Part shown: one piece after another, positions 1,652 to 40,922 of the stretch
How positions within the stretch are numbered: the first letter of the stretch is position 1
Layout of the letters: every line of letters starts with the position of its first letter
Assembly: GCF_051903065.1 (NCBI RefSeq)
Contig: NZ_CP178438.1
Origin: Escherichia coli
Lineage (GTDB): Bacteria; Pseudomonadota; Gammaproteobacteria; Enterobacterales; Enterobacteriaceae
Strand: one strand, 5' to 3'
DNA length: 64,000 nt
The notes under the pieces: generated by a model
Seen by the model: the letters and a program-made list of their open reading frames with translations, nothing else
Database searches by the model: none
What the model was told of the DNA's origin: nothing
Made by a program: the position numbers and the translations under genes

Positions 1652-2499
1652 GATGAGAGATCTCCGTTGATTTGGATTGACTTCACATCATTAATCACTG
1701 CGGTAAAACTTTACGGCATCCCGCCATTGAGCAACGCCAATGGCTCCTGATTAAAACAGAATGAATCCCCCACGAAGAAAAGATAAACCTACACGCAGGG
1801 TAAAACACACAACAACGGCATAAATGGTTTTTAAAAACTACAAAGCCCGAAGGGAAACGGATCAACAGAACGTGCAAACAAAACACCAAAAACGCAATCA
1901 GAACGCTTTCTGCTGCTGTGAATCAACAACAATACCAAAACCTACAGCTTAACCACAAAACTCAATCACAGAGCCGAATAGCGCGTTTAAAACCTGTTTA
2001 CAGATAACCCTGCCCCGAGAACAAAAACCACCAACATCAGAATCGATTTTCTTATCCTGAAAACGTTACTTTTCAACACACCATAAAAACGATTAACCAT
2101 CGATAACGTAAATCTCATCTGAATCAAAACACCAGAACCAATCATCACGCTTTTTCTGAAAAGAGCCTTATGATGAAGATAATCACCTTGCACTGAGAAA
2201 AAACACCAGGGCCAGTTAATCATCTCATCAATCTTATCGCTACAAAATCATCCATAAAACCATTTAACAAAATCATCGTAAGCACACAGTAAATCACGCC
2301 AGGTTATCTCAGCCGGATTTGCGTTTTACATAAAAACACTTGTCTCAGGTTAACGACTAAAAACACGAAAACTCATAAAAGGTTAAATGTAACATCAGAA
2401 AAATAGAATATCATATTGATTGCTTAAACAGGAAAGATTGTTTTGTAGTAGCATTAAGCTGATTTTAGTTAACGTAAAAACAGGACTGACAGGTTTACT

Positions 2500-2722
2500 A
2501 AACTGGATGTGTATCAGACAAAGCAATGTGTATAACAATACTTAATGAAAACACTTGTAGAATTGTTTATGAAAACATGTGTATGTCTGGTAAAACACTT
2601 AGTAGAAAATACGTGTATAACACTTACTGAAATGCTTAGTAAAAACACTTAGTAAAATATGTGTAGAATTATCTATTTAAAAAGATATGTATATAACACT
2701 TAATAAAAACATGTGTATATAG
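2500..2722. repeat. Array of degenerate direct repeats (ATGTGTAT / AACACTTA units), iteron- or operator-like
   Basis: At least seven copies of ATGTGTAT-like and five of AACACTTA(G/A)TA-like motifs within about 220 bp of AT-rich DNA; fused unit GTGTATAACACTTA seen at about 2612 and 2687. Confidence 0.55.
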
Positions 2723-3401
2723 TATCATACCGACATTCTCAACATCTTCAGACACTCATGCAGACTGAATGTTCGTTTCAGTTTTTCACGGCCAGCATGG
2801 GGATTTTTGTTCTGAAAACGGAGCAGATTTACTCTGGAATTATTTTTCTGTCCCCGTATTTCAGGCCCCAGAAAAGACAATCCGAAGCAAACCGTTTGTC
2901 AGCTTCCATATCATCTTTTACCCCCGGAAAGTGATCGCGTTTTACAACCAGAATGACAGCCATACTGATTATGTCGTCTCCCGGCCCCCTTCACATATAA
3001 CATGCATGCCTGTCATTGCTTACTGCTCCACATGACAGGATTTCACATACAGGATGCGCATTCAGTGTTTTTATCGCCACTATAACAGACAGATTACTGT
3101 CGCTTTTACTCTTCAGATTGTTAATCTGACCACAAGAACAGTCGAACAGTACAACGACACACCCAAGGAGGATATGAGCAGTAGTTGATAGCATGTTTTA
3201 ATTTATTATGAATAGATCAAGAATAGATCGTGAATAGTTAGAGAATAGTTCTTCAGCATCTCACAGAGTGATCAAGCCTTGAAGTGATTGCTTTTTGAAC
3301 ACAAGTCCGGATGCAATGTTTTTTTGTTAACTTCCTTGCATATTCGATTTCCATGTGATAGTGAAAATCACCAGAAGAGAATGCGATTGAGGCGTAATCA
3401 G

Positions 3402-4211
3402 ATGAAACAATATGAAGATGGTTATAACGTGAATGGATATAGCTGGGAAAATGAAACAATTGAGTATTTGTTGAATGATAAACAACTGACAGATAATCAC
3501 ATACCTGAATGGGTTAAAAAAAATGAAATTGCAGCATTCTGGTTCTGGTTAGTTATAATTAACACAGATCCCAAACTCCTTGGGGTTCGTAATGAATTAG
3601 GGTTCAATACAGCCATGATGGGGCTGATTCCTGCGGGGAGTATACCCATAACAACAATTCCTTCAGATCATGAAATGAGACTGGATGTTATAAGCAAATG
3701 GATTAATGCATTAATCCTTGACAATCAATCAGATTGCTTCATCTCAACAATGCATCAAAACTGGCTGCAGATCGAAAAGAGAAACGAAGCCAAATGGCTT
3801 AAAAAGAATACAGAACAACTCGAATGGGCATGGAAATATATCAATGCACGCATCCCGCACACGTATCTTTCCTGGTTTTATCCTGTAAGTGATAACGAAA
3901 GATACATTGCTATCGTAGTTTTACTAAAAATTTTATTCCCCGCAGATACACCATACTTACAGCAGCCAAAAGTACTTCACTATGGGGTTGCCGCAAAAGA
4001 AAAATTTTTCGACAAGATGCACAATGCATTCCGAAAACAGTTTACCGACGGAAAAAAAGATAAGCGGGTACAAATCAACGTTAAAATATCATCAGATGCA
4101 AAACGTACTCTGGACAGACTGACCAGAGAACTGAAAACAACACAACAGGCTGTCCTGGAACATCTGATTCAGAACCACAGGCTGGTGATTCAGAACCACA
4201 GACTGTATTAA
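3402..4211 (+). CDS. Hypothetical protein with C-terminal ribbon-helix-helix-like segment
   Basis: ORF 3288-4211; preferred ATG at 3402 (MKQYEDG) preceded by GAGG. C-terminus RVQINVKISSDAKRTLDRLTRELKTTQQAVLEHLIQ resembles an RHH DNA-binding motif. N-terminal about 220 aa unrecognised. Confidence 0.5.
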   Translation: MKQYEDGYNVNGYSWENETIEYLLNDKQLTDNHIPEWVKKNEIAAFWFWLVIINTDPKLLGVRNELGFNTAMMGLIPAGSIPITTIPSDHEMRLDVISKWINALILDNQSDCFISTMHQNWLQIEKRNEAKWLKKNTEQLEWAWKYINARIPHTYLSWFYPVSDNERYIAIVVLLKILFPADTPYLQQPKVLHYGVAAKEKFFDKMHNAFRKQFTDGKKDKRVQINVKISSDAKRTLDRLTRELKTTQQAVLEHLIQNHRLVIQNHRLY

Positions 4212-27904: not shown

Positions 27905-29047
27905 TTAAATCTGCTTTTCATACAATCGGTAACGCTTGTACGGCTCCGCCCCAATGCGTTCCAGCATGTTATTCATGCCTGTATTGGTTTCGAGGATCCA
28001 TGACATCTCCAGCGCATCGATCTTCCGGCGGGCAAACGGATCGCGTAAGGCTTCAATCAATAACAGCGCAATCACCGGGCCGATGCGGCTGAACTGATAC
28101 TCGTCGCGCACGCCCATCAGCGGTACTCTCGCAGTTCGCACACCGCTGACTTTCAAACGCCACAGCAATTTTGCCCAGCCGAAGGGAAAGAGCGATCCGT
28201 TCAGATCGGCAATCGCCTCGTTGATGTTCGGCAAGCCGACAATAAACGCGCAGGGTGCAGAATCAATCTCAGCGATGTAGATCATATCGTCCGGCACCAG
28301 ATATTTAAGTTGGTCGCCCATGGTCGCGAATTCATGTTCGGTAAACGGCACAAATCCCCAGTTGTGCTGCCAGCCAGAGTTGAAAATCTCACGCAGGATC
28401 TGCATCTCTTCGGCAAACCGCTGACGATTGATGCAGCGAATGGTCACCTTTTTGCGCACCTGATCCATCAGTTTTTTTAGCGCCGGAGAGAAAGTGAGAT
28501 CGGTTCGCTGCATCCACCACGCCAGTAAATCAATGCCTTTGTGATAACCCAGTTGTTCAATATGCGCGGCATACCACGGTTTGCCGTGTGGCATCATCGC
28601 ACAGGGTGGTGTATCGAAACCTTCAATCAGTAATCCGCTTTCCTGATTGATATTCAGGCTGAAAGGACCGCTGATCTTACTTGCACCTTGTGACTTCAAC
28701 CACGCTTCCGCTGCGCCAAACAACGCGGCAAAAACCTGCGGATCATCAATGGCGTCAATCATGCCGAAATGACCGGTATCTTCGCCGTAACGCTCGCGGT
28801 GTAAGGTATCGATTTGCGCGGTAATACGCCCAACTATCTGCCCGGCTATTTTTGCCACCCACGCCTGCCAGATGATATGGTCCGTCCCCGGATTTTTCAC
28901 AGACAAATGCTCGTTGCGTTCAATGAATAAAGGGGGTATCCAGTTTGGATCGTCGGGATAAAGTGATGACGGAAAAGCGATAAATGCCTTAAGGTCATTT
29001 TTATTAGTTACTTTTTCAATTTGAATCATTAGCAGATCGCATTCCAT
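27905..29047 (-). CDS. yghO: YghO, predicted acyl-CoA N-acyltransferase fold (candidate ceramide-synthase-like enzyme)
   Basis: 380 aa intact ORF matching recalled YghO; acyltransferase fold is recalled annotation, not verified here. Confidence 0.75.
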   Translation of the reverse strand: MECDLLMIQIEKVTNKNDLKAFIAFPSSLYPDDPNWIPPLFIERNEHLSVKNPGTDHIIWQAWVAKIAGQIVGRITAQIDTLHRERYGEDTGHFGMIDAIDDPQVFAALFGAAEAWLKSQGASKISGPFSLNINQESGLLIEGFDTPPCAMMPHGKPWYAAHIEQLGYHKGIDLLAWWMQRTDLTFSPALKKLMDQVRKKVTIRCINRQRFAEEMQILREIFNSGWQHNWGFVPFTEHEFATMGDQLKYLVPDDMIYIAEIDSAPCAFIVGLPNINEAIADLNGSLFPFGWAKLLWRLKVSGVRTARVPLMGVRDEYQFSRIGPVIALLLIEALRDPFARRKIDALEMSWILETNTGMNNMLERIGAEPYKRYRLYEKQI

Positions 29048-29418
29048 AGTTCTGTAGATAACAAAAAATTAACGGTGACAAACAGGTTGCAACAGCAACG
29101 AACGGCATCTTAATAATCAACCCAATGAATACAAACGACGAATAAATAGTATTTATTAATGATTACGATAAGGTCAGAGACTACACAGAAGCGCCACAAT
29201 GCCTTTTGTCGATTTAAGGCGACCGGACAAGGCTTCTTCTTAATATATTCATAAATTAAATATCATTCACAATAAAAACAAAAAAACTCAAACTCATTAT
29301 TTAAATCAATGTTCATTTTCACACTGATGAAAATACTATCTCATTTATCTTTTATGCCTATATAATCCACCGCATTATTGTCATTTTATTTTGGATATCC
29401 AATTTTTTCGTGGTGTAT

Positions 29419-31140
29419 ATGTCTAATAAAATCTTTACGCATTCCCTACCTATGCGCTATGCCGATTTTCCAACGCTGGTTGATGCTTTGGACTACGCCG
29501 CTCTGAGTAGCGCTGGAATGAATTTTTATGACAGACGTTGCCAACTTGAAGATCAACTGGAATATCAGACGTTAAAAGCGCGTGCCGAAGCTGGTGCGAA
29601 GCGGTTGTTATCGCTAAACCTGAAAAAAGGCGATCGCGTGGCGCTGATTGCCGAAACCAGTAGCGGGTTCGTAGAGGCTTTTTTTTCCTGCCAGTATGCC
29701 GGCTTAGTCGCCGTCCCGTTGGCGATTCCAATGGGCGTCGGTCAGCGGGATTCCTGGAGCGCCAAACTGCAGGGTTTACTGGCAAGTTGCCAGCCCGCTG
29801 CCATTATCACTGGTGATGAGTGGTTGCCGCTGGTCAATGCCGCCACGCATAACAACCCCGAATTGCATGTATTAAGCCACACCTGGTTTAAGGCATTACC
29901 GGAAGCCGATGTTGCGCTCCAGCGTCCAGTTCCGAACGATATCGCCTACCTCCAGTACACCTCCGGCAGCACCCGTTTTCCCCGTGGCGTCATTATCACC
30001 CATCGCGAAGTGATGGCTAATCTACGTGCTATAAGCCACGACGGCATTAAATTACGCCCTGGCGACCGCTGCGTCTCCTGGCTGCCTTTCTACCATGATA
30101 TGGGACTGGTCGGCTTTCTCCTGACCCCCGTCGCCACGCAGCTTTCAGTAGATTATTTGCGCACTCAGGATTTTGCCATGCGTCCTCTGCAATGGCTTAA
30201 ATTGATCAGTAAAAATCGCGGCACCGTTTCCGTTGCGCCGCCGTTTGGCTATGAATTGTGCCAGCGCCGCGTGAATGAAAAAGATCTCGCTGAACTGGAT
30301 CTTTCCTGCTGGCGCGTCGCTGGTATTGGTGCAGAACCCATCTCCACAGAACAACTCCATCAATTCGCTGAATGTTTCCGTCAGGTTAACTTTGACAATA
30401 AAACTTTCATGCCGTGCTACGGACTGGCAGAAAATGCGCTGGCTGTCAGCTTCTCTGATGAAGCCTCCGGGGTTGTGGTTAACGAAGTGGATCGCGACAT
30501 CCTCGAATATCAGGGTAAAGCCGTCGCGCCGGGTGCAGAGACACGCGCCGTATCGACTTTCGTCAACTGCGGCAAAGCGTTGCCGGAACATGGTATTGAA
30601 ATCCGCAATGAAGCAGGTATGCCGGTCGCGGAACGTGTGGTAGGCCATATTTGCATCTCCGGTCCCAGTCTGATGAGCGGTTACTTTGGCGACCAGGCTT
30701 CGCAAGACGAGATTGCCGCGACGGGCTGGTTAGACACTGGCGACCTCGGATATCTGCTGGACGGTTATCTGTATGTCACCGGACGCATTAAAGATCTGAT
30801 TATTATTCGTGGCCGTAATATCTGGCCGCAGGATATTGAATATATAGCGGAACAGGAACCGGAAATTCATTCTGGCGATGCGATTGCTTTTGTTACCGCC
30901 CAGGAAAAAATCATTTTGCAGATCCAGTGTCGGATCAGCGATGAAGAACGTCGCGGGCAGCTTATCCACGCGCTGGCGGCACGGATCCAAAGCGAATTTG
31001 GCGTGACCGCGGCTATCGATCTGTTGCCGCCCCACAGTATTCCCCGAACGTCCTCCGGCAAGCCTGCCCGTGCGGAAGCGAAAAAACGTTATCAGAAGGC
31101 TTATGCTGCAAGCCTTCATGTGCAGGAATCCCTGGCATGA
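29419..31140 (+). CDS. Fatty acyl-AMP ligase / acyl-ACP synthetase (adenylate-forming enzyme)
   Basis: AMP-binding motifs YTSGSTRFPRGV and TGDLGY; ORF track begins at GTG 29410, first ATG at 29419. Confidence 0.85.
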   Translation: MSNKIFTHSLPMRYADFPTLVDALDYAALSSAGMNFYDRRCQLEDQLEYQTLKARAEAGAKRLLSLNLKKGDRVALIAETSSGFVEAFFSCQYAGLVAVPLAIPMGVGQRDSWSAKLQGLLASCQPAAIITGDEWLPLVNAATHNNPELHVLSHTWFKALPEADVALQRPVPNDIAYLQYTSGSTRFPRGVIITHREVMANLRAISHDGIKLRPGDRCVSWLPFYHDMGLVGFLLTPVATQLSVDYLRTQDFAMRPLQWLKLISKNRGTVSVAPPFGYELCQRRVNEKDLAELDLSCWRVAGIGAEPISTEQLHQFAECFRQVNFDNKTFMPCYGLAENALAVSFSDEASGVVVNEVDRDILEYQGKAVAPGAETRAVSTFVNCGKALPEHGIEIRNEAGMPVAERVVGHICISGPSLMSGYFGDQASQDEIAATGWLDTGDLGYLLDGYLYVTGRIKDLIIIRGRNIWPQDIEYIAEQEPEIHSGDAIAFVTAQEKIILQIQCRISDEERRGQLIHALAARIQSEFGVTAAIDLLPPHSIPRTSSGKPARAEAKKRYQKAYAASLHVQESLA

Positions 31141-32051
31141 ATCAAACTGTCGCGGTGACGGGCGCTACCGGTTTTATCGGTAAATATATTATCGATAACC
31201 TGCTCGCCCGCGGCTTTCACGTTCGCGCATTGACGCGTACTGCCCGCGCTCACGTCAATGATAATCTCACCTGGGTGCGCGGTTCGCTGGAAGATACTCA
31301 TTCACTTAGCGAACTGGTTGCCGGAGCCAGTGCGGTGGTCCATTGCGCCGGGCAAGTGCGCGGACACAAAGAGGATGTCTTTACTCGCTGTAACGTTGAC
31401 GGTAGCCTGCGCTTGATGCAGGCGGCAAAAGAGAGCGGCTTTTGCCAACGTTTTCTATTTATCTCTTCGCTGGCGGCGCGCCATCCCGAGCTCTCCTGGT
31501 ATGCAAAATCCAAACATGTCGCCGAACAACGACTGGCAGCAATGGCGGACGCAATTACGCTGGGCGTTTTTCGCCCAACGGCAGTCTATGGCCCCGGCGA
31601 TAAAGAGTTAAAACCACTGTTTGACTGGATGCTGCGCGGCCTGCTGCCACGGCTGGGCGCACCAGATACACAGCTCTCTTTCCTGCACGTCACCGATTTC
31701 GCACAAGCCGTGGGTCAGTGGTTAAGCGCCGACTCCGTACAGACGCAAACGTATGAATTATGTGATGGTGTCGTCGGTGGCTATGACTGGCAGCGCATAC
31801 AACAACTGGCCGCCGCCGCCCGCCAGGGAGCTGTACGGATGGTCGGCGTTCCTCTGCCGTTGCTCACCTGCCTTGCGGATATCAGTACCGCGTTGAGTCG
31901 CCTGGCAGGTAAAGAACCTATGCTGACCCGCTCGAAAATTCGTGAATTAACCCACGCCGACTGGTCGGCAAGTAATAACCGTATTTCTGAAGATATTAAT
32001 TGGTTTCCCGGGATTAGCCTGGAACACGCATTACGCAACGGGCTATTTTGA
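31137..32051 (+). CDS. Extended SDR (NAD-dependent epimerase/dehydratase family) reductase
   Basis: Rossmann GATGFIG at N-terminus and YAKSK (YxxxK) motif; start overlaps the upstream stop (ATGA). Confidence 0.85.
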   Translation: MNQTVAVTGATGFIGKYIIDNLLARGFHVRALTRTARAHVNDNLTWVRGSLEDTHSLSELVAGASAVVHCAGQVRGHKEDVFTRCNVDGSLRLMQAAKESGFCQRFLFISSLAARHPELSWYAKSKHVAEQRLAAMADAITLGVFRPTAVYGPGDKELKPLFDWMLRGLLPRLGAPDTQLSFLHVTDFAQAVGQWLSADSVQTQTYELCDGVVGGYDWQRIQQLAAAARQGAVRMVGVPLPLLTCLADISTALSRLAGKEPMLTRSKIRELTHADWSASNNRISEDINWFPGISLEHALRNGLF

Positions 32052-32082
32052 TTGTCTTGTTTAAAGGTGTGTTAACGTTTCT

Positions 32083-32331
32083 ATGGTAAATCGTGAAATA
32101 GTAATGGATTACATCCTTTCCTGTTTACAGGATTTGGTCGAAAACGGTGTGGAAATTAAGCCCGACAGCGATCTCGTCAACGATCTTGGCCTGGAGTCGA
32201 TCAAAGTGATGGATCTCTTAATGATGCTGGAAGACAGATTCGATATTTCCATTCCTATTAATATTCTGCTGGATGTCAAAACCCCTGCGCAATTAATGGA
32301 AACTCTACTTCCATGGCTGGAGAATAAATAA
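32083..32331 (+). CDS. Acyl carrier protein
   Basis: 82 aa; DLGLESIKVMDLLMMLED resembles the phosphopantetheine attachment region; AAGGTG upstream of ATG 32083. Confidence 0.7.
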   Translation: MVNREIVMDYILSCLQDLVENGVEIKPDSDLVNDLGLESIKVMDLLMMLEDRFDISIPINILLDVKTPAQLMETLLPWLENK

Positions 32332-33503
32332 TGGGGCTATACGATAAATATGCGCGCCTTGCTGGCGAGCGACTGCAATTTAGTGACAACGGGTTAACAC
32401 CGTTTGGCACCTGTATTGATGAAGTGTATTCCGCCACCGAAGGCCGGATCGGCAATAAAAAAGTGATTCTGGCCGGGACCAATAATTACCTCGGTTTAAC
32501 CTTTAATCATGATGCCATCGCCGAAGGTCAGGCAGCGTTAGCGACCCAAGGCACCGGCACCACCGGTTCTCGTATGGCAAACGGCAGTTATGCGCCGCAC
32601 CTGGCGTTAGAGAAAGAGATTGCCGAGTTTTTCAATCGCCCTACCGCTATCGTTTTTTCAACCGGTTATACCGCTAATTTAGGCGTCATCAGCGCACTTG
32701 CCGACCATAACGCCGTGGTGTTACTGGATGCCGACAGCCACGCCAGTATTTATGACGCCTGTTCTCTCGGTGGCGCGGAAATTATTCGTTTCCGCCATAA
32801 CGATGCTAAAGATCTGGAACGGCGCATGGTTCGCCTCGGTGAACGGGCGAAAGAGGCGATTATCATCGTTGAGGGCATCTACAGTATGCTCGGTGACGTT
32901 GCGCCACTGGCGGAAATTGTTGATATCAAACGTCGTCTCGGTGGTTATTTGATTGTCGATGAAGCGCATTCGTTTGGCGTGTTAGGCGCAACGGGGCGCG
33001 GACTGGCTGAAGCTGTAGGCGTTGAAGATGATGTGGATATTATCGTTGGCACCTTCAGTAAAAGTCTGGCCTCGATTGGCGGTTTTGCTGTCGGTTCGGA
33101 AGCGATGGAAGTGCTGCGCTACGGCAGCCGCCCGTATATTTTTACCGCCTCTCCTTCTCCGTCCTGCATTGCGACCGTGCGCTCGTCGTTAAGAACTATT
33201 GCCACACAACCAGAGCTGCGGCAAAAGCTGATGGATAATGCCAACCATCTGTATGACGGTCTGCAAAAACTGGGTTATGAGTTAAGTTCACATATTAGCC
33301 CGGTAGTGCCGGTAATAATCGGTTCGAAAGAGGACGGTTTACGCATCTGGCGCGAGCTTATTTCGCTGGGCGTTTATGTGAATCTTATCCTGCCACCTGC
33401 CGCGCCTGCAGGCATCACGCTGCTGCGCTGTAGCGTAAACGCTGCCCACAGTCGTGAGCAAATCGATGCCATCATTCAAGCGTTCGCTACTCTGAAGCAG
33501 TAA
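32331..33503 (+). CDS. PLP-dependent alpha-oxoamine synthase (serine palmitoyltransferase/BioF/Kbl family)
   Basis: 390 aa; PLP-lysine motif GTFSKSLASIGGF; start overlaps the ACP stop. Confidence 0.85.
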   Translation: MGLYDKYARLAGERLQFSDNGLTPFGTCIDEVYSATEGRIGNKKVILAGTNNYLGLTFNHDAIAEGQAALATQGTGTTGSRMANGSYAPHLALEKEIAEFFNRPTAIVFSTGYTANLGVISALADHNAVVLLDADSHASIYDACSLGGAEIIRFRHNDAKDLERRMVRLGERAKEAIIIVEGIYSMLGDVAPLAEIVDIKRRLGGYLIVDEAHSFGVLGATGRGLAEAVGVEDDVDIIVGTFSKSLASIGGFAVGSEAMEVLRYGSRPYIFTASPSPSCIATVRSSLRTIATQPELRQKLMDNANHLYDGLQKLGYELSSHISPVVPVIIGSKEDGLRIWRELISLGVYVNLILPPAAPAGITLLRCSVNAAHSREQIDAIIQAFATLKQ

Positions 33504-33537
33504 TGTGAGCCCGCTGTGGTGTTGCGCCACGGCGGGT

Positions 33538-34617
33538 TTAATGTTGTCTGTCATACCAATACACCAGGCTCAACGCCATCAACACAAACGCTACCGGTAA
33601 ACCGAGCGCGATAACAGGTGCGCTCAACGCAAATAGCAAACCCAGATTGACCATGATTTGATAGCTGATCCAGGTGAGTAAGCCAACGATGACGCCTACA
33701 GCGAGACGGCTACCCATCCCTGGCGAGCGCGGGGCGCTAAAGGTAAACGGCACAGCCAGCAAAATCATCGCCAGGGTCAGGATCGGTTGCCCCAGTTTTT
33801 CCCACAGTGCAAGGCGGTATTCGCTGCTGGGTTGCCCGGTTTCCTGCAAATAATGGATGTAATGATTAAGCTGACGGACAGAAAAAGTATTCCCCGGCAT
33901 CGATAGCTCTTCAAGATCCATACTGGTGAAGGCCGATTGCCAGGCAAGATTATCTGATGTTTCCAGCGTTTCTTTACCGTTAAGCCATTTTTTATGATTC
34001 ACACCATGCAGGATCCACATTTTGTCGTCTTTAATGGTGGCACTGCGTGCATAAATGTAGGATTCGAGCGAGAGATCGTCGCGATAATGAAATATCTCCA
34101 CGCCCACCGGCTGGCCCTGCTCGTTCAGCGATTTCACCGTTACAAATTCATTACCGCGCCTGGCCCAAAGCATATTGCCGGTAATATCATCGTCCTCCCC
34201 CAACGCAGTGGCGGTCGATTTGATTTGCAGCGCCTGTTGCTGCAATGGCGACGCTACCCACTCATCTATCGCGCCTAACGAAACAGTCCACAATATCCCG
34301 GCAACCAGCGCCACCAGTGCAATACGGAAGATAGAAAACCCCGTGCTGCGAATGGCGGTAAGCTCACTGTTTTTCGATAACTGCCCCAGGCCAACAATCC
34401 CTCCCAATAAGGCGATAAACGGCGAAAGTTCGACCAGTGTGCGCGGTAAGGTCATTAGCACCACCAGCACCGCCTGAGTCCAGCGATAACCGCCCGGGCT
34501 GACATCATCCAGTTCGTTAATCAGGTTGAAGGTGGTAAAAAGCGGCAGCAATAGCCCTGCGGCGGCGGCAAAACCGAGAAAGAGATGACGGATTAAATAG
34601 CGACTGAAAACATTCAT
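33538..34617 (-). CDS. LptG-like permease (YjgP/YjgQ family)
   Basis: Start MNVFSRYLIRHLFLGF; six-helix permease pattern; 4-bp overlap with the upstream LptF-like gene. Confidence 0.75.
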   Translation of the reverse strand: MNVFSRYLIRHLFLGFAAAAGLLLPLFTTFNLINELDDVSPGGYRWTQAVLVVLMTLPRTLVELSPFIALLGGIVGLGQLSKNSELTAIRSTGFSIFRIALVALVAGILWTVSLGAIDEWVASPLQQQALQIKSTATALGEDDDITGNMLWARRGNEFVTVKSLNEQGQPVGVEIFHYRDDLSLESYIYARSATIKDDKMWILHGVNHKKWLNGKETLETSDNLAWQSAFTSMDLEELSMPGNTFSVRQLNHYIHYLQETGQPSSEYRLALWEKLGQPILTLAMILLAVPFTFSAPRSPGMGSRLAVGVIVGLLTWISYQIMVNLGLLFALSAPVIALGLPVAFVLMALSLVYWYDRQH

Positions 34618-35684
34618 CGGGAAAATTTCTGCAGCAAAGAGAAGTCGCGTGCGACCAGCATCAGCAGGCCCATTAGCATGAGTCCGGGCACTAACCACAA
34701 ACCAGGAATGAGAGGAATCGCGCCGTTAGCCACCAGCGTACGGCAGACGTCGCCGCCATAAAAAATGACAACAAACAGCAACGTCAGTGGCAATAACGTT
34801 GAAAATCGCCCTTGCCGCGGTTTTACCCGACTTAATGAAATGGCCAGCAGCGCCATCAACAATGCGGTCAGGCCACGGCTTTGTCGCCATTGCAGTTCGG
34901 CATGATCGGCCGGAAAGACGGAGCGCGCCAGCTCCGTGACCGATTTTGCTTTGCGTTTGACGTTAGGGCTTTGATCCAGCGGATTCAGATGTAATTGCAG
35001 ATTACGGTAGATCTGTTCGTTGTCGTCACGCCCCTGATGATCGAGAAGATAGGCGGTGCCGTTGTGCAACATAACGGTCGGTTTCTCGGGAGATGGGTCA
35101 ACCACATCAACCGAACGGGCGCGGAAAATGCGGGTTCGATTGGCAGTAGAAGTATAAATCAGCGCGTCAGTCAGGCGATTATTATCCTGATCAACCGTCT
35201 GCGAAAGGATCATTCGTCCGTTATCGTTAGTGTTAAATTTCTTTGCCCGCAACTGGCGAACATCCAGCTCCGACTGCGACTGCTGCTCCAGTTGATAAAT
35301 CTGCGCATAAGCCCACGGACGACCATACATCGACAGAAGGGTGACAAAAATACTTAGCGGTATCGCCAGATAAAGAACGGCTTTGTACAAGCGTCCCGGA
35401 CTGCCCCCTGCCGCAGAGATAGCAGTAATTTCCGAGTCGGTATACATCTGCCCTAGCGTCACGCCAACTGACACATACAGTCCAACAGGTAACAACATCT
35501 CCAGTGCAATCAGCACCTTGTAGAAAACGATATCCAGCACAACATCAAGTGCTAATGTCCCATTTGCCGCTTCGGTCAGATAACGCTGTGCGGAGTAGCT
35601 GGCGAAAATAAAGATCAGAAAACCGACGATAATCAGCACCAGACGGCGCGTACCACGCATGATGTAGTGTTCAACCAGCTTCAT
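34614..35684 (-). CDS. LptF-like permease (YjgP/YjgQ family)
   Basis: 356 aa; MKLVEHYIMRGTRRLVLII; paired with the LptG-like gene. Confidence 0.75.
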   Translation of the reverse strand: MKLVEHYIMRGTRRLVLIIVGFLIFIFASYSAQRYLTEAANGTLALDVVLDIVFYKVLIALEMLLPVGLYVSVGVTLGQMYTDSEITAISAAGGSPGRLYKAVLYLAIPLSIFVTLLSMYGRPWAYAQIYQLEQQSQSELDVRQLRAKKFNTNDNGRMILSQTVDQDNNRLTDALIYTSTANRTRIFRARSVDVVDPSPEKPTVMLHNGTAYLLDHQGRDDNEQIYRNLQLHLNPLDQSPNVKRKAKSVTELARSVFPADHAELQWRQSRGLTALLMALLAISLSRVKPRQGRFSTLLPLTLLFVVIFYGGDVCRTLVANGAIPLIPGLWLVPGLMLMGLLMLVARDFSLLQKFSR

Positions 35685-35714
35685 CTCACTAACGCCCTCA
35701 ATCCTTTGAATTTT

Positions 35715-36278
35715 TTATTCATTGATCAGTTTCTGCGCCAGCGCAATGACATGATCTACCTCTTCCGGCGTCAGGCTGCCGTCCTTTGCCCACTGAATTT
35801 GCCCGGTTTTATTCAGCACCAGAATGGTTGAACTCTGCTCCGGCAAGCGCCAGGCAACGCGTCCCTGTCCATTGCCGTCAATAACGAATTGCGCCCACGG
35901 ATAGCGGCGTTTATTTTTTTCGATTTTGCCAACGACAAAATAGCCAGTACCAAAGATGGCATCATCAGTGTTCACAATGGTGGTGGGCTGAAAACGATCC
36001 TGTGGAAAGTTTGCCGCTTCAACCGCTTTAATTAACAGTGAGTTCTTTTTCTTCGCCGACTTACGCCCGGCGATATACTGGATAATGCGGACTTTTCCCG
36101 CCAATTGTGTGCTGTTCCACTTTTGGTAGTGAATTTCGTCGTCGCTATTCAGAAGCAGCTCGCCGCCTTCCTGAATATAAACAGGGGTAACCGTTTTGCC
36201 AGTGACGAAATTGTGTGCCTGCACACCCGGGGCTAAGAGCATGATAATCAGCGCAATAATCAAACGAGATGACATCAT
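35715..36278 (-). CDS. YtfJ-family periplasmic protein (paralog)
   Basis: 187 aa with signal peptide; clear similarity to recalled YtfJ (TTIVNTDDAI...YPW.QF..D.NG...WQL...VLDK.G..QWAKDG.LTPEEV). Confidence 0.75.
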   Translation of the reverse strand: MMSSRLIIALIIMLLAPGVQAHNFVTGKTVTPVYIQEGGELLLNSDDEIHYQKWNSTQLAGKVRIIQYIAGRKSAKKKNSLLIKAVEAANFPQDRFQPTTIVNTDDAIFGTGYFVVGKIEKNKRRYPWAQFVIDGNGQGRVAWRLPEQSSTILVLNKTGQIQWAKDGSLTPEEVDHVIALAQKLINE

Positions 36279-36286
36279 TGCTCCGG

Positions 36287-37111
36287 TTATAGCGGAAAAC
36301 GCGAAATCAGCAGCTCTAAGCGCTGGCGAATATCGCTATCCAGCGCCACCGGTGCATCATACGACTGGCGGTTTTCCATATCATCCGCCACCATGTCGTC
36401 GTGTTTATCCCCCATCAGGCCATTAATGGCGGCGAGGAAACGGGAAATCTGTAACGCCTCTTTATTTTCAGGATCAAGCGATCTTAAGGTGTCGTAATAA
36501 GAAACCTGCTGGCTGATGATTTTTCGCACATCATGAAATTCCCTGCCGGTTAGTCGCGGTTTGGCAATTATCTCTTTCAGGGCATGCATTTGCTTTTGCC
36601 GATAGGCAATAAAACCGCTTACGCTTTCTAACTGGCTATGGCGTAATGAATAGTTCACCAACGACCAGACCGGAGAGCTTAAATAAATCCGTAACAGGTT
36701 GCCGTAATACGACACAATATTTTTCTTACCGTTACGAAACCCGTCCTGAAAACGTCCCAGAAAAACGGTCGTTTTGCCGAATAAAAATCCGGCCTGATGC
36801 TTCTTTAAATACAGCCGTTGCGCAAAACGCAGGTGCTTGTAGCGCGCTCGCATGTATTTAAATTGTTTGCGCTCATCAGCAGTCAGCTCATCGCCTTTGG
36901 CTTGTTTGCGAACTAAACGCAGTAATTCCTGACGATTAACGCCATTGAGCCAGAATTGCAGGCATAACGCGTAATTATCATGAATGATTTCGGTGGTACA
37001 ACTTAGTGCAATAGTCGGCGGCAAACTAACCTGTGCATCAACGACATCATCTTCTTCAATCGCAACAAATAGACGCTCGCTCGCCTCAAGCGGGAAATAT
37101 TTTCTCATCAT
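36287..37111 (-). CDS. Hypothetical protein
   Basis: 274 aa ORF between the YtfJ-like gene and yghQ; no motif recognised. Confidence 0.55.
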   Translation of the reverse strand: MMRKYFPLEASERLFVAIEEDDVVDAQVSLPPTIALSCTTEIIHDNYALCLQFWLNGVNRQELLRLVRKQAKGDELTADERKQFKYMRARYKHLRFAQRLYLKKHQAGFLFGKTTVFLGRFQDGFRNGKKNIVSYYGNLLRIYLSSPVWSLVNYSLRHSQLESVSGFIAYRQKQMHALKEIIAKPRLTGREFHDVRKIISQQVSYYDTLRSLDPENKEALQISRFLAAINGLMGDKHDDMVADDMENRQSYDAPVALDSDIRQRLELLISRFPL

Positions 37112-38460
37112 CAGGATTTCTCTCCGGCTGCGTTATAAAGCAAGGAATGGCGCTGAAAAAATGCCTTTAAGGTTGGAATTAACGAGAGCGCCACGTCCAG
37201 ACATTGCCCACCGAAGTAAGCAAACGCTGCTCCCAGCACGCCAAACAGATGACAGAACATGAACAGCAATACGATGTAGCCGATTGAGGCGATGGTTTGC
37301 GCCACGAGAAAAGCGCGCTGTTTTCCCGCCATCAATAGCAATGACTCCTGAGGGAAGCCCAGCATCGAGATCACAATTGCGCCCAGCATCACCTGAATCA
37401 GGTCATACGCTTCGAGATACTTAACGCCAAACACCAGCGAAATGAGCGGCTTGCCGACGATCAACACCGCGAGCGCCACCAGAATACCGATTCCGCCCGC
37501 CAGTAAACCGGACTTCACGCCTAACAACCACGGTCTGGTGGTGCGCGGATCTAAACGCATCACCTCTGGGTAAAAACTTTTACCCAGTAAACCCGCTGGC
37601 GTTCCGGCGGCGTCGAAGAATGTCATGGCGATTTTAAATAACCCGGCGGCAGCGGGTCCTAACACGATCCCCACCAACACTGTGCTGCACGAGTTACGTG
37701 CCGACCAGATGGAGTGGGCAATGTTGGTCGACCAGACAAAACTCCACGCGCCTTTAATGTGTCGGGCAGACTCAAACAGATTCAATTTGAAGGCGTTATG
37801 GATATTTCTGCGGCGTAATTCGCGCGCGGCAAACCACCAGTACATGGTGCCGCCAACCAGATTCGACACGTACCAGGCAATAACAAAACCCGCAAAACCA
37901 AAGTCAAAATACCAGGCTACGACGCTCCCCGCTGCGCGCAGAAAAGGTTTCGTCGCCTGCTGTACAGCAATCAAATCAAAGCGATCTACCGCACGCAGAA
38001 TGCCGGTCGGCGTGGAGGAAGCCATTGAAGGAATGAGCGTGCAATACAGCGCCGCCAGCCAAAAGCTTTGGTCATCCAGACCTAATGAATGGGAAAGGAA
38101 TGGCAGTAAGGCAATGCCGCCGACAATCGCCACCGCGCCGCTGACGATATCCAGCGAGAAGGAAAATGAGACGACATTGCGAAATTGCTGCGGATTATTG
38201 TTGGTTAATGCTGGTGTTCCGTACTGAACCACCAGCTGCCATGTCTGAAACTTAATAAAATCGCTGATCGACTTGGCGTACGATTGCACAATCACCAGTA
38301 CGCCAAACATGGCGGGCGTCATCCCTTTACCGGCACACGAGAGCGCCAACAGCCCCAGCAAAGCGCTCACGACATTACTGGAGCCTAACCAGGCGCTATT
38401 GCGAATAATGGTGCGAAACGCGCCATCTGCAAACCAATGTTTGATGTTAAAACCCGCCAA
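37111..38460 (-). CDS. yghQ: YghQ, MOP/Wzx-like polysaccharide/lipid flippase family membrane protein
   Basis: 449 aa polytopic membrane protein; synteny with yghRST. Confidence 0.75.
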   Translation of the reverse strand: MAGFNIKHWFADGAFRTIIRNSAWLGSSNVVSALLGLLALSCAGKGMTPAMFGVLVIVQSYAKSISDFIKFQTWQLVVQYGTPALTNNNPQQFRNVVSFSFSLDIVSGAVAIVGGIALLPFLSHSLGLDDQSFWLAALYCTLIPSMASSTPTGILRAVDRFDLIAVQQATKPFLRAAGSVVAWYFDFGFAGFVIAWYVSNLVGGTMYWWFAARELRRRNIHNAFKLNLFESARHIKGAWSFVWSTNIAHSIWSARNSCSTVLVGIVLGPAAAGLFKIAMTFFDAAGTPAGLLGKSFYPEVMRLDPRTTRPWLLGVKSGLLAGGIGILVALAVLIVGKPLISLVFGVKYLEAYDLIQVMLGAIVISMLGFPQESLLLMAGKQRAFLVAQTIASIGYIVLLFMFCHLFGVLGAAFAYFGGQCLDVALSLIPTLKAFFQRHSLLYNAAGEKS

Positions 38461-38505
38461 TTCAGCCTGACCTTATCGTTGATAGTAAAAAGTATCCCGC
38501 CAGCC

Positions 38506-39264
38506 TTAAGTTAAACTTCGGCGGTCAGAAACGATGGCAACCAGAGAAACCGCCTTCTGTGCCTGTTCCAGCACTTCGCTGTAGGGCGCTCTGGAATCAA
38601 TCTCAAGAATTTTTGTGCCGTTATAGCCAATCGTCGACATAACACCGATTTTGTCCTGCAGCTCGGCATAGTCATGGTCAGGCTTGCGGGAGATGGCAGT
38701 CTCAATATCAATGCCCAGGCGAATAATTAATTCCGGGCGATATTGCGCCATTTGTTGGTATAAACGCCGTTCGCGCTGCGCCAGAAACATGCTTATTTTC
38801 CCGGTCGCACGTTCGACGCCAATCCCCGGTCCATCATAATAAAAGCCCGAAATTTCAGCCTGCGGGAAGCGATCGCTGACCACCAGAACGCCACTTTGCG
38901 CCAGTCGCTGAACCTTGCGTAGATTCGCCATTCTTCGCAGCGAGAAGCAGTACATAATCACCGCCGCCCATAGCGCCGGAGATTTGGTTTTCATGCTTTG
39001 GGTTTTCGAGGATTTGGCCGCCAGTCGCCGTTCCAGCCAGACGCCAACCAACGGCAATCGTTTGATTTTGTCGCCGTCTTCGCCCGAGAGCAGCCCCAAA
39101 TAGCGGCGCTCGGTTTGCCAGTGTTGTTGCAGCGATTTCACCAGGTCGGTGGTCAGCGTGGATTTACCGGTGCCATCACACCCGACCACCGCAATCAGCC
39201 CCGGAATGTAGTTGGGCTGCGGTGCGGTTGTACTATTAACAGTTTGTGTTTGTAGTGCATCCAT
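38506..39264 (-). CDS. yghR: YghR, P-loop ATP-binding protein
   Basis: Walker A GCDGTGKST; matches recalled YghR (MDALQTQTVNSTTAPQPNYIPGLIAVVGCDGTGKSTL). Confidence 0.85.
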   Translation of the reverse strand: MDALQTQTVNSTTAPQPNYIPGLIAVVGCDGTGKSTLTTDLVKSLQQHWQTERRYLGLLSGEDGDKIKRLPLVGVWLERRLAAKSSKTQSMKTKSPALWAAVIMYCFSLRRMANLRKVQRLAQSGVLVVSDRFPQAEISGFYYDGPGIGVERATGKISMFLAQRERRLYQQMAQYRPELIIRLGIDIETAISRKPDHDYAELQDKIGVMSTIGYNGTKILEIDSRAPYSEVLEQAQKAVSLVAIVSDRRSLT

Positions 39265-39295
39265 TCGTTAAATCATCCCCTATCCATTTTGGTGA

Positions 39296-40009
39296 TCAGG
39301 AAAGCGCGGCGTGAATTGCGCGTAGTGACGCTTGCATAATTTCATCGGCTGGTTGCCGACCATCCAGTTCAAGGATCTTTGCGCCATTGAATGTCAGTTG
39401 CGGCGTAACGGCGATTTTTTCCTGTAACGCTGCCAGTTGGTGGTCAGGTTTACGCGCAAACGCGGTTTGTTCATCAATGCCAAGACGAATCAACAATACG
39501 GGTAAATAAGACGCCATCCATTGGTACAGCTTCAACTCGCGCTGCCTTAACATTTTTATCCAACCGTTACCGCCCGTGGTTTTTGCCAATTGCGGGCCAT
39601 CAAAGCGAAAACCCGGCACTTCAACCTGCGGGTAGCGGTCGGTGATGAGCAGATGGCCTTGCTGGCTTCTACACAACATTTTGCGAAACTTGTACGCCCG
39701 CCAGCAGGAAAGCAGATAGATAACCAGCGCAGTAATATTGCCAGGCGGTGTTGAGGGCTTTTCGTGCACATGTGCCGCTTTACTTCGCAGATAACGCCCA
39801 AAAGGTGCGCCAATAACAGGGAGCTGTGAAATCCATTCGCCAATTCGCCCGGACGATTGCCCGAGATAAATGCGTTCTGTTGGCATTCTTGCTGCCAGTT
39901 CATTTACCAGGCTTGCCGTGAGGGTCGATTTACCTGAACCATCACATCCTACAATGGCAATAACACGCACTGGCGTGGAATTAATTATTGACATATTACG
40001 TTGATTCAC
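39296..40009 (-). CDS. yghS: YghS, P-loop ATP-binding protein (YghR paralog)
   Basis: Walker A GCDGSGKST; 237 aa. Confidence 0.85.
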   Translation of the reverse strand: MNQRNMSIINSTPVRVIAIVGCDGSGKSTLTASLVNELAARMPTERIYLGQSSGRIGEWISQLPVIGAPFGRYLRSKAAHVHEKPSTPPGNITALVIYLLSCWRAYKFRKMLCRSQQGHLLITDRYPQVEVPGFRFDGPQLAKTTGGNGWIKMLRQRELKLYQWMASYLPVLLIRLGIDEQTAFARKPDHQLAALQEKIAVTPQLTFNGAKILELDGRQPADEIMQASLRAIHAALS

Positions 40010-40182
40010 GAAAAACCCGGCAGTAAATAATGTATTGAATATTACGTGGTCCGTGCTCAGAATATCCGTTCAACCTTATTGTGACAATGGTTAATTGTGA
40101 CATTGACCTGAATTACGCTTTCATAAAAACATATTAACCAAATAAATATTTTGGATGGATATTTAAATTAAAGGATATATTC

Positions 40183-40875
40183 ATGCAGTCAATAACACCT
40201 CCATTAATTGCCGTTATTGGTAGCGATGGTTCAGGCAAGTCAACGGTGTGTGAACATCTCATTACCGTTGTCGAAAAATATGGTGCTGCCGAAAGAGTTC
40301 ATTTAGGAAAACAAGCCGGAAATGTCGGTCGTGCAGTGACAAAATTACCGTTGATGGGAAAATCCTTACATAAAACAATTGAACGAAATCAGGTGAAAAC
40401 AGCAAAAAAATTGCCAGGACCAGTTCCGGCGCTGGTAATTACAGCGTTTGTCGCCCGTCGCTTACTGCGCTTTCGTCATATGCTTGCCTGTCGTCGTCGC
40501 GGGTTAATTGTTCTAACCGACCGTTATCCTCAGGACCAAATTCCTGGCGCTTACGATGGTACGGTGTTCCCACCTAACGTTGAAGGTGGTCGTTTTGTCT
40601 CATGGCTGGCAAGCCAGGAACGTAAAGCGTTTCACTGGATGGCGAGCCATAAGCCTGATCTGGTCATCAAACTCAATGTCGATCTAGACGTGGCCTGCGC
40701 GCGTAAGCCTGACCACAAAAGGGAGTCGCTGGCAAGAAAGATAGCCATAACGCCACAGTTAACCTTTGGTGGTGCACAACTGGTTGATATCGACGCCAAT
40801 CAGCCACTGGAACAGGTGTTAGTTGATGCAGAAAAAGCGATTACGGATTTTATGACCGCGCGTGGTTATCACTAG
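40183..40875 (+). CDS. yghT: YghT, P-loop ATP-binding protein (YghR/S paralog)
   Basis: Walker [10 protein letters not shown]; 230 aa. Confidence 0.85.
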
Positions 40876-40922
40876 CCAAAAATGGAAATGCCCGATCGCC
40901 AGGACCGGGCATTTCAGGAAGG

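Follow-up and report, generated by a model that had tools for sequence, protein, structure and literature searches.

YghR, YghS and YghT: three thymidylate-kinase-like paralogues in the sphingolipid locus of Escherichia coli

What do three small nucleotide-binding proteins do beside the sphingolipid genes of Escherichia coli? The question is raised by a stretch of 64,000 nucleotides of E. coli DNA (contig NZ_CP178438.1 of assembly GCF_051903065.1, hereafter the window), in which the genes yghR, yghS and yghT encode P-loop proteins next to the flippase gene yghQ and a block for lipid synthesis and export. This block is the known proteobacterial sphingolipid locus with yghO/bCerS, aasR, epi/cerR, acpR, spt and lptF2/G2. 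YghS, YghR and YghT are best explained as anciently diverged phosphotransferases of the dTMP kinase (deoxythymidine monophosphate kinase, dTMPK) superfamily that were exapted away from nucleotide metabolism. In the reading we prefer, with a probability of roughly 0.45, the trio is a hetero-oligomeric kinase which would build or use a sphingolipid head group rich in phosphate; the lipid would afterwards be flipped and exported. The gene names yghRST and the sphingolipid locus itself were already known; the link of the three kinase types to sphingolipid genes across the Proteobacteria, a CHAD-like open reading frame (ORF) in the same operon and the parallel to the archaeal polyphosphate kinase PPK3 were not found in the literature searched.

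Paralogy, motifs and fold of the trio

The three ORFs of the window coincide with the RefSeq gene models of a reference E. coli genome (23CRST027), which is 100% identical to the window over the compared stretches (29410-40950). The initial annotation had described three consecutive paralogous P-loop proteins of 230-252 amino acids (aa) arranged minus, minus, plus, and the ORF coordinates agree, as does a pairwise identity of 34-42% over the full length. BLASTP between the proteins gave 144-185 bits, far above chance. On their sequences, yghR, yghS and yghT are true paralogues. The Walker A motifs read GCDGTGKST, GCDGSGKST and GSDGSGKST, with the common pattern G[CS]DG[ST]GKST. The residues had thus been described correctly, only the attribute "unusual" has to be dropped, since GxDGxGK[ST]T is the canonical P-loop of dTMP kinases. 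DR[YF]PQ and RKPDH are present in all three proteins. In 80 sequences covering the three types, the G/D/G/G/K residues of Walker A were invariant, together with (YghS numbering) G50, G54, G67, R125 of the DRx motif, P127, D137, E158, P170, A183, R186, K187, D189, H190, L195 and K198. As the catalytic motifs are invariant in every type, YghR, YghS and YghT all look catalytically competent. The median isoelectric points (pI) of the three orthogroups are 9.7, 9.9 and 10.0; such strongly basic proteins fit polyanionic ligands or membranes.

The trio has a P-loop kinase fold, with thymidylate kinase (TMPK) as the best structural match. The suggestion of kinases was therefore reasonable, whereas the nucleotidyltransferases proposed alongside found no support. 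The P-loop of the Aquifex TMPK, 'LIAFEGIDGSGKTT', was aligned to the family consensus 'liAvvGcDGsGKst'. A profile search of PDB sequences aligned the P-loop, placed 'LLSxWR...DRYPQ' opposite 'LFSANRWE...DRY' of TMPK and the arginine of RKPDH opposite the lid arginine. The feature set of Tmk, i.e., P-loop, DRx and lid arginine, is present and invariant in the 80 trio sequences. Differences to Tmk are a lid shortened to RKPDH, a pI of about 10 and the occurrence as three co-conserved paralogues in lipid loci. The residues binding dTMP were not kept: the phosphate-binding loop 'FPxR' of TMPK is replaced by an invariant YLGxxSG ('YFPNRETG' stands opposite 'YLGQSSG' in the alignment), the helix following DRY, which contacts the nucleotide in TMPK, has become a Pro/Gly-rich loop PQxExxGFxxDGP, and a conserved stretch of about 25 residues (LPxIG) is inserted in the trio. 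All three proteins missed the cut-offs of Pfam PF02223 (Thymidylate_kin; 26.7, 16.3 and 20.1 bits, cut-off 27), of TIGR00041 (32, 22.3 and 24.6 bits, cut-off 83.25) and of the curated dTMPK model NF005923 (cut-off 193), with scores against curated models of 16-32 bits; no Pfam or NCBIfam model was reached by YghR, YghS or YghT. E. coli has its own essential canonical tmk. With the dTMP residues lost, the dTMPK cut-offs missed and a separate tmk in the genome, the resemblance to TMPK shows ancestry, not function. The initial annotation had named homology to a nucleotide-salvage kinase as an outcome against a role in the lipid pathway; such a kinase is indeed the best structural match, though its function is not implied. 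The name 'dTMP kinase' given by RefSeq/PGAP to yghS and yghT looks like an over-call.

The structural match to PPK2 polyphosphate kinases was clearly weaker than to TMPK and Pfam PPK2 was not matched. Matches to ABC-type proteins were confined to P-loop residues; an ABC fold beyond Walker A was not found. A role in anti-phage defence was rejected as well, the PADLOC matches being at the P-loop level only.

Orthogroups, neighbours and a CHAD-like partner

Relatives were collected in one scan of 100,044 species genomes, which yielded 248 relative-encoding stretches; 80 species-level loci of these were analysed. Counts over 81 loci comprise these 80 fetched loci and the near-identical reference genome of the window, with loci of 20 kb. 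All ORFs of the loci were clustered and each P-loop ORF was typed against YghR, YghS and YghT. The gammaproteobacterial hosts are Enterobacterales, Xanthomonadales/Lysobacterales, Carnimonas and Cellvibrionales-like and Aeromonadales metagenome-assembled genomes (MAGs), the betaproteobacterial hosts are Methylotenera, Sulfuritalea, Gallionellaceae, Nitrotoga and Comamonadaceae, and further hosts belong to the Sphingomonadales (Alphaproteobacteria) and to Myxococcota-like MAGs. The family is small, with 2178 matches at E<1e-3 and 142 at E<1e-30 among 1.84 billion cluster representatives. Two loci, labelled Martelella alba (L036) and Pseudomonas sp. MAG (L018), have an Enterobacterales-type gene order despite their labels and proteins 69-70% identical to E. 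coli YghR; contamination, mis-binning or recent transfer are possible.

In the typed loci the paralogues sort into three orthogroups, S, R and T, and the order and orientation T< S> R> is shared by E. coli, Dyella, Methylotenera, Sphingopyxis and further taxa. S and R invariably lie side by side in the same direction (71 pairs, median gap 31 nt). T is absent in some loci, among them several of Betaproteobacteria, and duplicated in four (L054, L057, L061, L068). Natural fusions join S to R (P0121, P0043 and two Nitrotoga genomes, L070 and L072) or T to R (P0122, P0123 and P0029 of Oecophyllibacter); a 464-aa 'fusion' in L047 was an artefact of ORF calling. An old triplication in which every copy was retained argues for non-redundant subunits or successive steps. 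These ancient orthogroups with their fusions had escaped the initial annotation, as had the CHAD-like ORF of the same operon.

Spt is encoded within 10 kb of the trio in 55 of the 81 loci (54 of the 80 fetched), yghQ is co-located in 64 (63) and the 274-aa CHAD-like ORF in 55 (54). Of 22 loci outside the Enterobacterales that span 18 kb or more, 21 had a lipid-related neighbour family and 11 had spt. The initial annotation had connected the trio with the lipid and export block, and the co-occurrence across genomes favours this link over an independent distribution. Of the 38 loci outside the Enterobacterales, 19 had an LpxO-like Asp/Asn hydroxylase as neighbour, 15 and 7 had members of two PAP2 families, 11 had DUF2147, and 9 each had a PEMT-like membrane methyltransferase and an RND pump with outer-membrane factor; GT4 glycosyltransferases recurred as well. 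A DgkA-like lipid kinase gene (119 aa, PF01219) adjoins yghO/bCerS in half of the Enterobacterales-group loci (19 of 38; L008, L015, L037, L040, L059 and 14 others); its product is a candidate ceramide kinase, and the E. coli locus has no such gene. The conserved core consists of the kinases and YghQ, usually with the 274-aa protein, and is most often embedded in a sphingolipid cluster.

Distant relatives (E 1e-30 to 1e-46; P0161-P0268 and L082 4351-5871) are longer, at about 500 aa; their kinase domain is C-terminal, and the N-terminal part weakly matches NTP_transf_5. Their genes lie in polysaccharide loci, together with those for Wzx, Wzy, glycosyltransferases and another small P-loop protein. 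One of them, P0218 (978 aa), is fused to a Polysacc_synt_3 flippase, another, P0258, to a GT4. The idea that the 274-aa ORF is a split-off partner of the N-terminal domain of these relatives was rejected, as BLASTP and phmmer gave no similarity.

The 274-aa protein is encoded by an ORF which had remained unannotated. Its gene always lies directly after yghQ, with overlapping stop and start, and the family counts 568 proteins. No PDB sequence matched this family; its CHAD likeness was revealed by fold comparison. The predicted structure is all-helical with a CHAD fold (pLDDT, the predicted local distance difference test, 94.8; predicted template modelling score, pTM, 0.91). The sequence agreement is weak: nine of 34 family members matched Pfam CHAD (PF05235; best E 1.1e-5), and the L062 member, with 26.0 bits against a gathering cut-off of 25.6, was the sole one above it. 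Both halves of the CHAD-like proteins match the same part of the CHAD profile. H93, H105, H193, H237, R60, R88, R95, R196 and K92 are invariant in the 34 sequences. CHAD domains are described as inorganic-polyphosphate-binding modules (bioRxiv 10.1101/567040, PMC6537752). By its predicted fold the 274-aa partner is a CHAD-like protein of a putatively polyphosphate-binding type, and points to phosphate-rich chemistry. It is very divergent from the known CHAD proteins (Ricinus 6qv5, Chlorobium 3e0s, PptA 6rn5, YgiF 5a61), and it is translationally coupled to a flippase of the MOP superfamily, whereas known CHADs are fused to CYTH or encoded beside ppk/ppx. A reciprocal search from the CHAD-like protein led to an unrelated metagenome contig with the order T< GT2< CHADx2> GT4> S> R>. 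It also recovered the Oecophyllibacter locus with the T-R fusion, where the kinase is accompanied by a CHAD-like gene (E 2e-76), GT4s, a His_Phos_1 phosphatase and a pair of YghQ-like genes. In Luteibacter, Dyella and Sphingobium, YghQ at first seemed fused to the CHAD-like protein, but these ORFs had been extended too far in another frame; the two genes overlap from stop to start and are not joined.

A proposed phosphate-rich head group and its alternatives

According to the preferred reading, the trio would act at the cytoplasmic face of the inner membrane, as hetero-oligomer or in successive steps, with S and R as obligatory pair. Where a DgkA-like kinase is present, it would convert ceramide to ceramide-1-phosphate; E. 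coli DgkA phosphorylates ceramide in vitro. In a transfer from ATP as in nucleoside monophosphate (NMP) kinases, a phosphate on an anionic head group would become a diphosphate and beyond. YghS, YghR and YghT may in this way extend ceramide phosphate to ceramide pyro- or oligophosphate, or they may alternatively draw on an oligo- or polyphosphate that the CHAD-like protein keeps bound. The phosphorylated product would be flipped by YghQ; MOP flippases canonically act on diphosphate-linked lipids. LptB-LptF2G2 would then export the lipid, and in taxa having PAP2 enzymes, these may trim or transfer phosphates in the periplasm. LptF2/G2 are needed for sphingolipid transport in Caulobacter, where they use the housekeeping LptB (bioRxiv 10.64898/2026.04.12.717747). 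The most specific version, in which ceramide serves as lipid anchor for a pyro-, oligo- or polyphosphate that the module extends by single additions while the CHAD-like protein holds the chain, is a doubtful one.

Several observations weigh against the head-group kinase. A pyro- or oligophosphate head group built in this manner is not known from any sphingolipid, and the literature search gave no biochemical or genetic data on YghR, YghS or YghT. Spt was not within 10 kb in 26 of the 80 fetched loci, and it is not close by in half of the full-length loci outside the Enterobacterales. Of the 81 loci, 26 have no CHAD-like gene, including some whose flanks are complete, and the E. coli 274-aa protein itself matches no Pfam model, CHAD included. 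A model of concatenated YghS and YghR by AlphaFold2 (AF2) reached a pTM of 0.47, with no confident S-R interface.

One or more members of the trio may instead be hydroxyl-directed kinases which turn ceramide (at its C1 hydroxyl), long-chain bases or sugars of the head group into monophosphates, with no pyro- or polyphosphate involved. They would then be functional analogues of CpgB of Caulobacter, the ceramide kinase which makes an anionic head group there, while CpgA, CpgC and CpgD help to build it. Like the trio, CpgB is a soluble kinase of the cytoplasm encoded in a sphingolipid locus beside lptF2/G2 and a putative flippase. Genes of the cpg type were not among the recurrent neighbours of the trio. 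This explanation is rather unlikely. Homology to CpgB was ruled out: CpgB is DAGK-like with a GGDG motif and the trio has the P-loop TMPK fold.

A second comparison concerns PPK3 of Sulfolobus acidocaldarius, in which two adjacent 'thymidylate kinases', Saci_2019 (cPPK3) and Saci_2020 (rPPK3), form a heteromeric polyphosphate kinase (PMC12995831). Its operon also encodes PPX, SixA and a CHAD protein; the catalytic subunit is cPPK3, and rPPK3, the regulatory one, no longer has the DRx arginine. The dTMP-binding residues of PPK3 show no conservation, and polyphosphate was proposed to lie in a positively charged cleft (PMC12995831). In both systems, adjacent dTMPK paralogues are misnamed as dTMP kinases and share an operon with a gene for a CHAD protein, both have lost the dTMP-binding residues, and both are basic, PPK3 on its surface and the Ygh proteins in their whole-protein pI. 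The hetero-oligomer has been demonstrated for PPK3, for YghRST it is suggested by the fusions. By this analogy the three kinases and the CHAD protein could together make or consume ordinary cytoplasmic polyphosphate as an energy or phosphate buffer, the link to sphingolipids being merely positional. The neighbourhoods speak against it. PPX, SixA/PhoE and Pst, the neighbours expected for a PPK3-type system, are absent from the recurrent neighbour families of the 81 loci, where spt, acpR, aasR, the flippase, PAP2, LpxO-like proteins and LptF2G2 recur; phosphate-related exceptions were pitB in Escherichia and close relatives and the one His_Phos_1 gene in Oecophyllibacter. This context of sphingolipid synthesis, flippase and export is unlike that of PPK3. 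The DRx arginine (R125) is kept in all S, R and T sequences, thus no Ygh paralogue resembles rPPK3 in its loss. The closer match of the trio profile is to canonical TMPKs (7e-6); the cPPK3 homologue 2plr was matched at 0.028, through the P-loop alone. Bacterial relatives of PPK3 have been reported in Acidobacteriota and candidate phyla, whereas the hosts of the trio are Proteobacteria with PPK1, E. coli among them. Since YghRST lacks several defining features, PPK3 is treated here as a possible working analogue rather than as the family of the trio, and a cytoplasmic polyphosphate kinase is improbable.

An equally slim chance is given to regulatory or non-catalytic NTPases, whose ATP binding would gate, assemble or energise YghQ or LptF2G2 or would sense the nucleotide or phosphate state. 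The common operon with yghQ and lptF2G2, the flippase fused to a P-loop domain in the distant relative P0218 and the lack of a dedicated ATPase gene in the sphingolipid locus would suit such a role. However, the fold is that of small-molecule kinases and not of ABC or AAA+ proteins, the DRx and lid arginines are invariant in all three types, LptF2G2 of Caulobacter draw on the housekeeping LptB, and MOP flippases are not known to be ATP-driven. Genuine dTMP or nucleotide-salvage kinases, as in the RefSeq names, are very improbable: thymidylate kinases are the nearest relatives in structure and sequence, but the family scores, the replaced phosphate-binding loop and post-DRY helix, the constant lipid or flippase context of the three copies and the tmk already present in E. 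coli all disagree, and Saci_2019/2020 are a precedent for such annotations being wrong.

The locus in the window and in E. coli genomes

Coordinates of the locus are collected in Table 1. The minus-strand genes follow in the order yghS, yghR, yghQ, 274-aa ORF, ytfJ-like gene, lptF2 and lptG2 with gaps of 31, 45, -1, 8, 30 and -4 nt, and this spacing suggests a single operon starting at yghS. The roles of aasR, epi/cerR, acpR and spt were studied with genes of BL21(DE3) (PMC9386255). The locus of E. coli UTI89 has been drawn without discussion of yghRST (bioRxiv 10.64898/2026.04.12.717747). The PGAP names 'LPS export ABC transporter permease LptF/LptG' (LPS, lipopolysaccharide) for lptF2 and lptG2 and, for yghQ, 'lipopolysaccharide biosynthesis protein' look like over-calls.

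Table 1 Features of the yghRST locus (positions in the window)
Feature	Position	Strand	Remarks
yghO	27905-29047	-	bCerS/'aca' homologue; intact in the window
aasR	29452-31140	+	ceramide synthesis gene
epi/cerR	31137-32051	+	ceramide synthesis gene
acpR	32083-32331	+	ceramide synthesis gene
spt	32331-33503	+	ceramide synthesis gene
Hairpin spt/lptG2	33506-33540		GC-rich, 16 pairs, between convergent genes
lptG2	33538-34617	-	LPS export permease paralogue, operon-distal; Pfam LptF_LptG
lptF2	34614-35684	-	LPS export permease paralogue, operon-distal; Pfam LptF_LptG
ytfJ-like gene	35715-36278	-	187 aa; Pfam YtfJ_HI0045 2e-59; in Enterobacterales-group loci only
274-aa ORF	36287-37111	-	divergent CHAD domain protein by predicted fold, unannotated; start overlaps yghQ stop
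yghQ	37111-38460	-	MOP-superfamily (Wzx-like) flippase, 449 aa; Pfam Polysacc_synt 7.8e-11
yghR	38506-39264	-	252 aa, R-type dTMPK-fold P-loop kinase paralogue; ORF, RefSeq model, R orthogroup
yghR, RKPDH	38674-38688
yghR, DRFPQ	38860-38874
yghR, Walker A	39157-39183
yghS	39296-40009	-	237 aa, GTG start, S-type paralogue; first gene of the minus-strand operon
yghS-yghT spacer	40010-40182		173 bp, divergent, AT-rich, GC about 0.31
Promoter-like site	40087-40059	-	in the spacer; consensus match only
yghT	40183-40875	+	230 aa, T-type paralogue, divergent from yghS; ORF, RefSeq model, T orthogroup
yghT, Walker A	40219-40245
yghT, DRYPQ	40519-40533
yghT, RKPDH	40702-40716
Hairpin yghT/pitB	40885-40915		GC-rich, 13 pairs, between convergent genes; terminator-like (pattern match only)
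pitB	40923-42422	-	low-affinity phosphate transporter paralogue, convergent with yghT

By pattern, the hairpins behind spt and yghT are likely bidirectional terminators which bound the transcription units of the locus. The spacer between yghS and yghT contains a direct repeat, TTGTGACA...TTGTGACA, at 40079-40101 with a period of 15 bp, which occurs in Escherichia loci only; a search of this intergenic region for a Pho box gave no match. Literature on the three genes consisted of strain lists, a silkworm screen without phenotype and tables on FlhDC SELEX (systematic evolution of ligands by exponential enrichment) and SlyA. A FlhDC SELEX peak was reported between yghS and yghT in K-12. For yghS, a 3.1-fold increase under SlyA overexpression was tabled with H-NS-regulon marks, and the region looks silenced by H-NS. 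PitB stays adjacent to the trio in ten loci of Escherichia, Hafnia, Citrobacter and Pseudocitrobacter, and this adjacency may be plain synteny or a phosphate-related link. In the reference 23CRST027, otherwise identical, yghO is split by IS1 (776 extra bases; L001 2730-4648), so the window belongs to a close relative of this strain and not to that very assembly. Elsewhere in the window, positions 2001-4000 have a low GC content of 0.35-0.38 against about 0.52 in the remainder, which suggests horizontally acquired DNA.

In a survey of 5426 complete E. coli genomes, yghRST was present in 4604 and the cassette for synthesis and export in 4066. The whole block of 11.5 kb was contiguous in 4057 of these 4066, about 75% of all genomes, so the cassette is almost never present without the trio. 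About 550 genomes have the trio and lack the cassette, K-12 among them. In K-12 MG1655 (L084, NC_000913.3 3129043-3134823) the segment from aasR to the CHAD-like gene was lost in an IS5-associated deletion, an IS5 lies between yghO and a yghQ cut down to 355 from 449 aa, and yghRST follow. K-12 thus keeps the trio without the pathway to act on, which fits the absence of a reported phenotype, and knock-outs of yghQRST in K-12 are uninformative on this pathway. As K-12 has been the host of nearly all phenotyping of y-genes, the loss of the pathway explains the lasting label 'ATP-binding proteins'.

Anionic phosphosphingolipids of Caulobacter can partly replace LPS and determine the sensitivity to polymyxin. 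Should the doubtful version with a phosphate chain anchored on ceramide hold, the product would be a surface lipid of a kind not known before, strongly anionic and LPS-like, which a Wzx-like flippase would flip and LptB-LptF2G2 would export. As part of a head-group module, the trio would also be a second, independent case, after the archaeal PPK3, of TMPK paralogues recruited together with a CHAD protein. The kinase trio, the CHAD-like protein and the flippase as a conserved head-group module are a concrete prediction for the head-group chemistry of enterobacterial sphingolipids.

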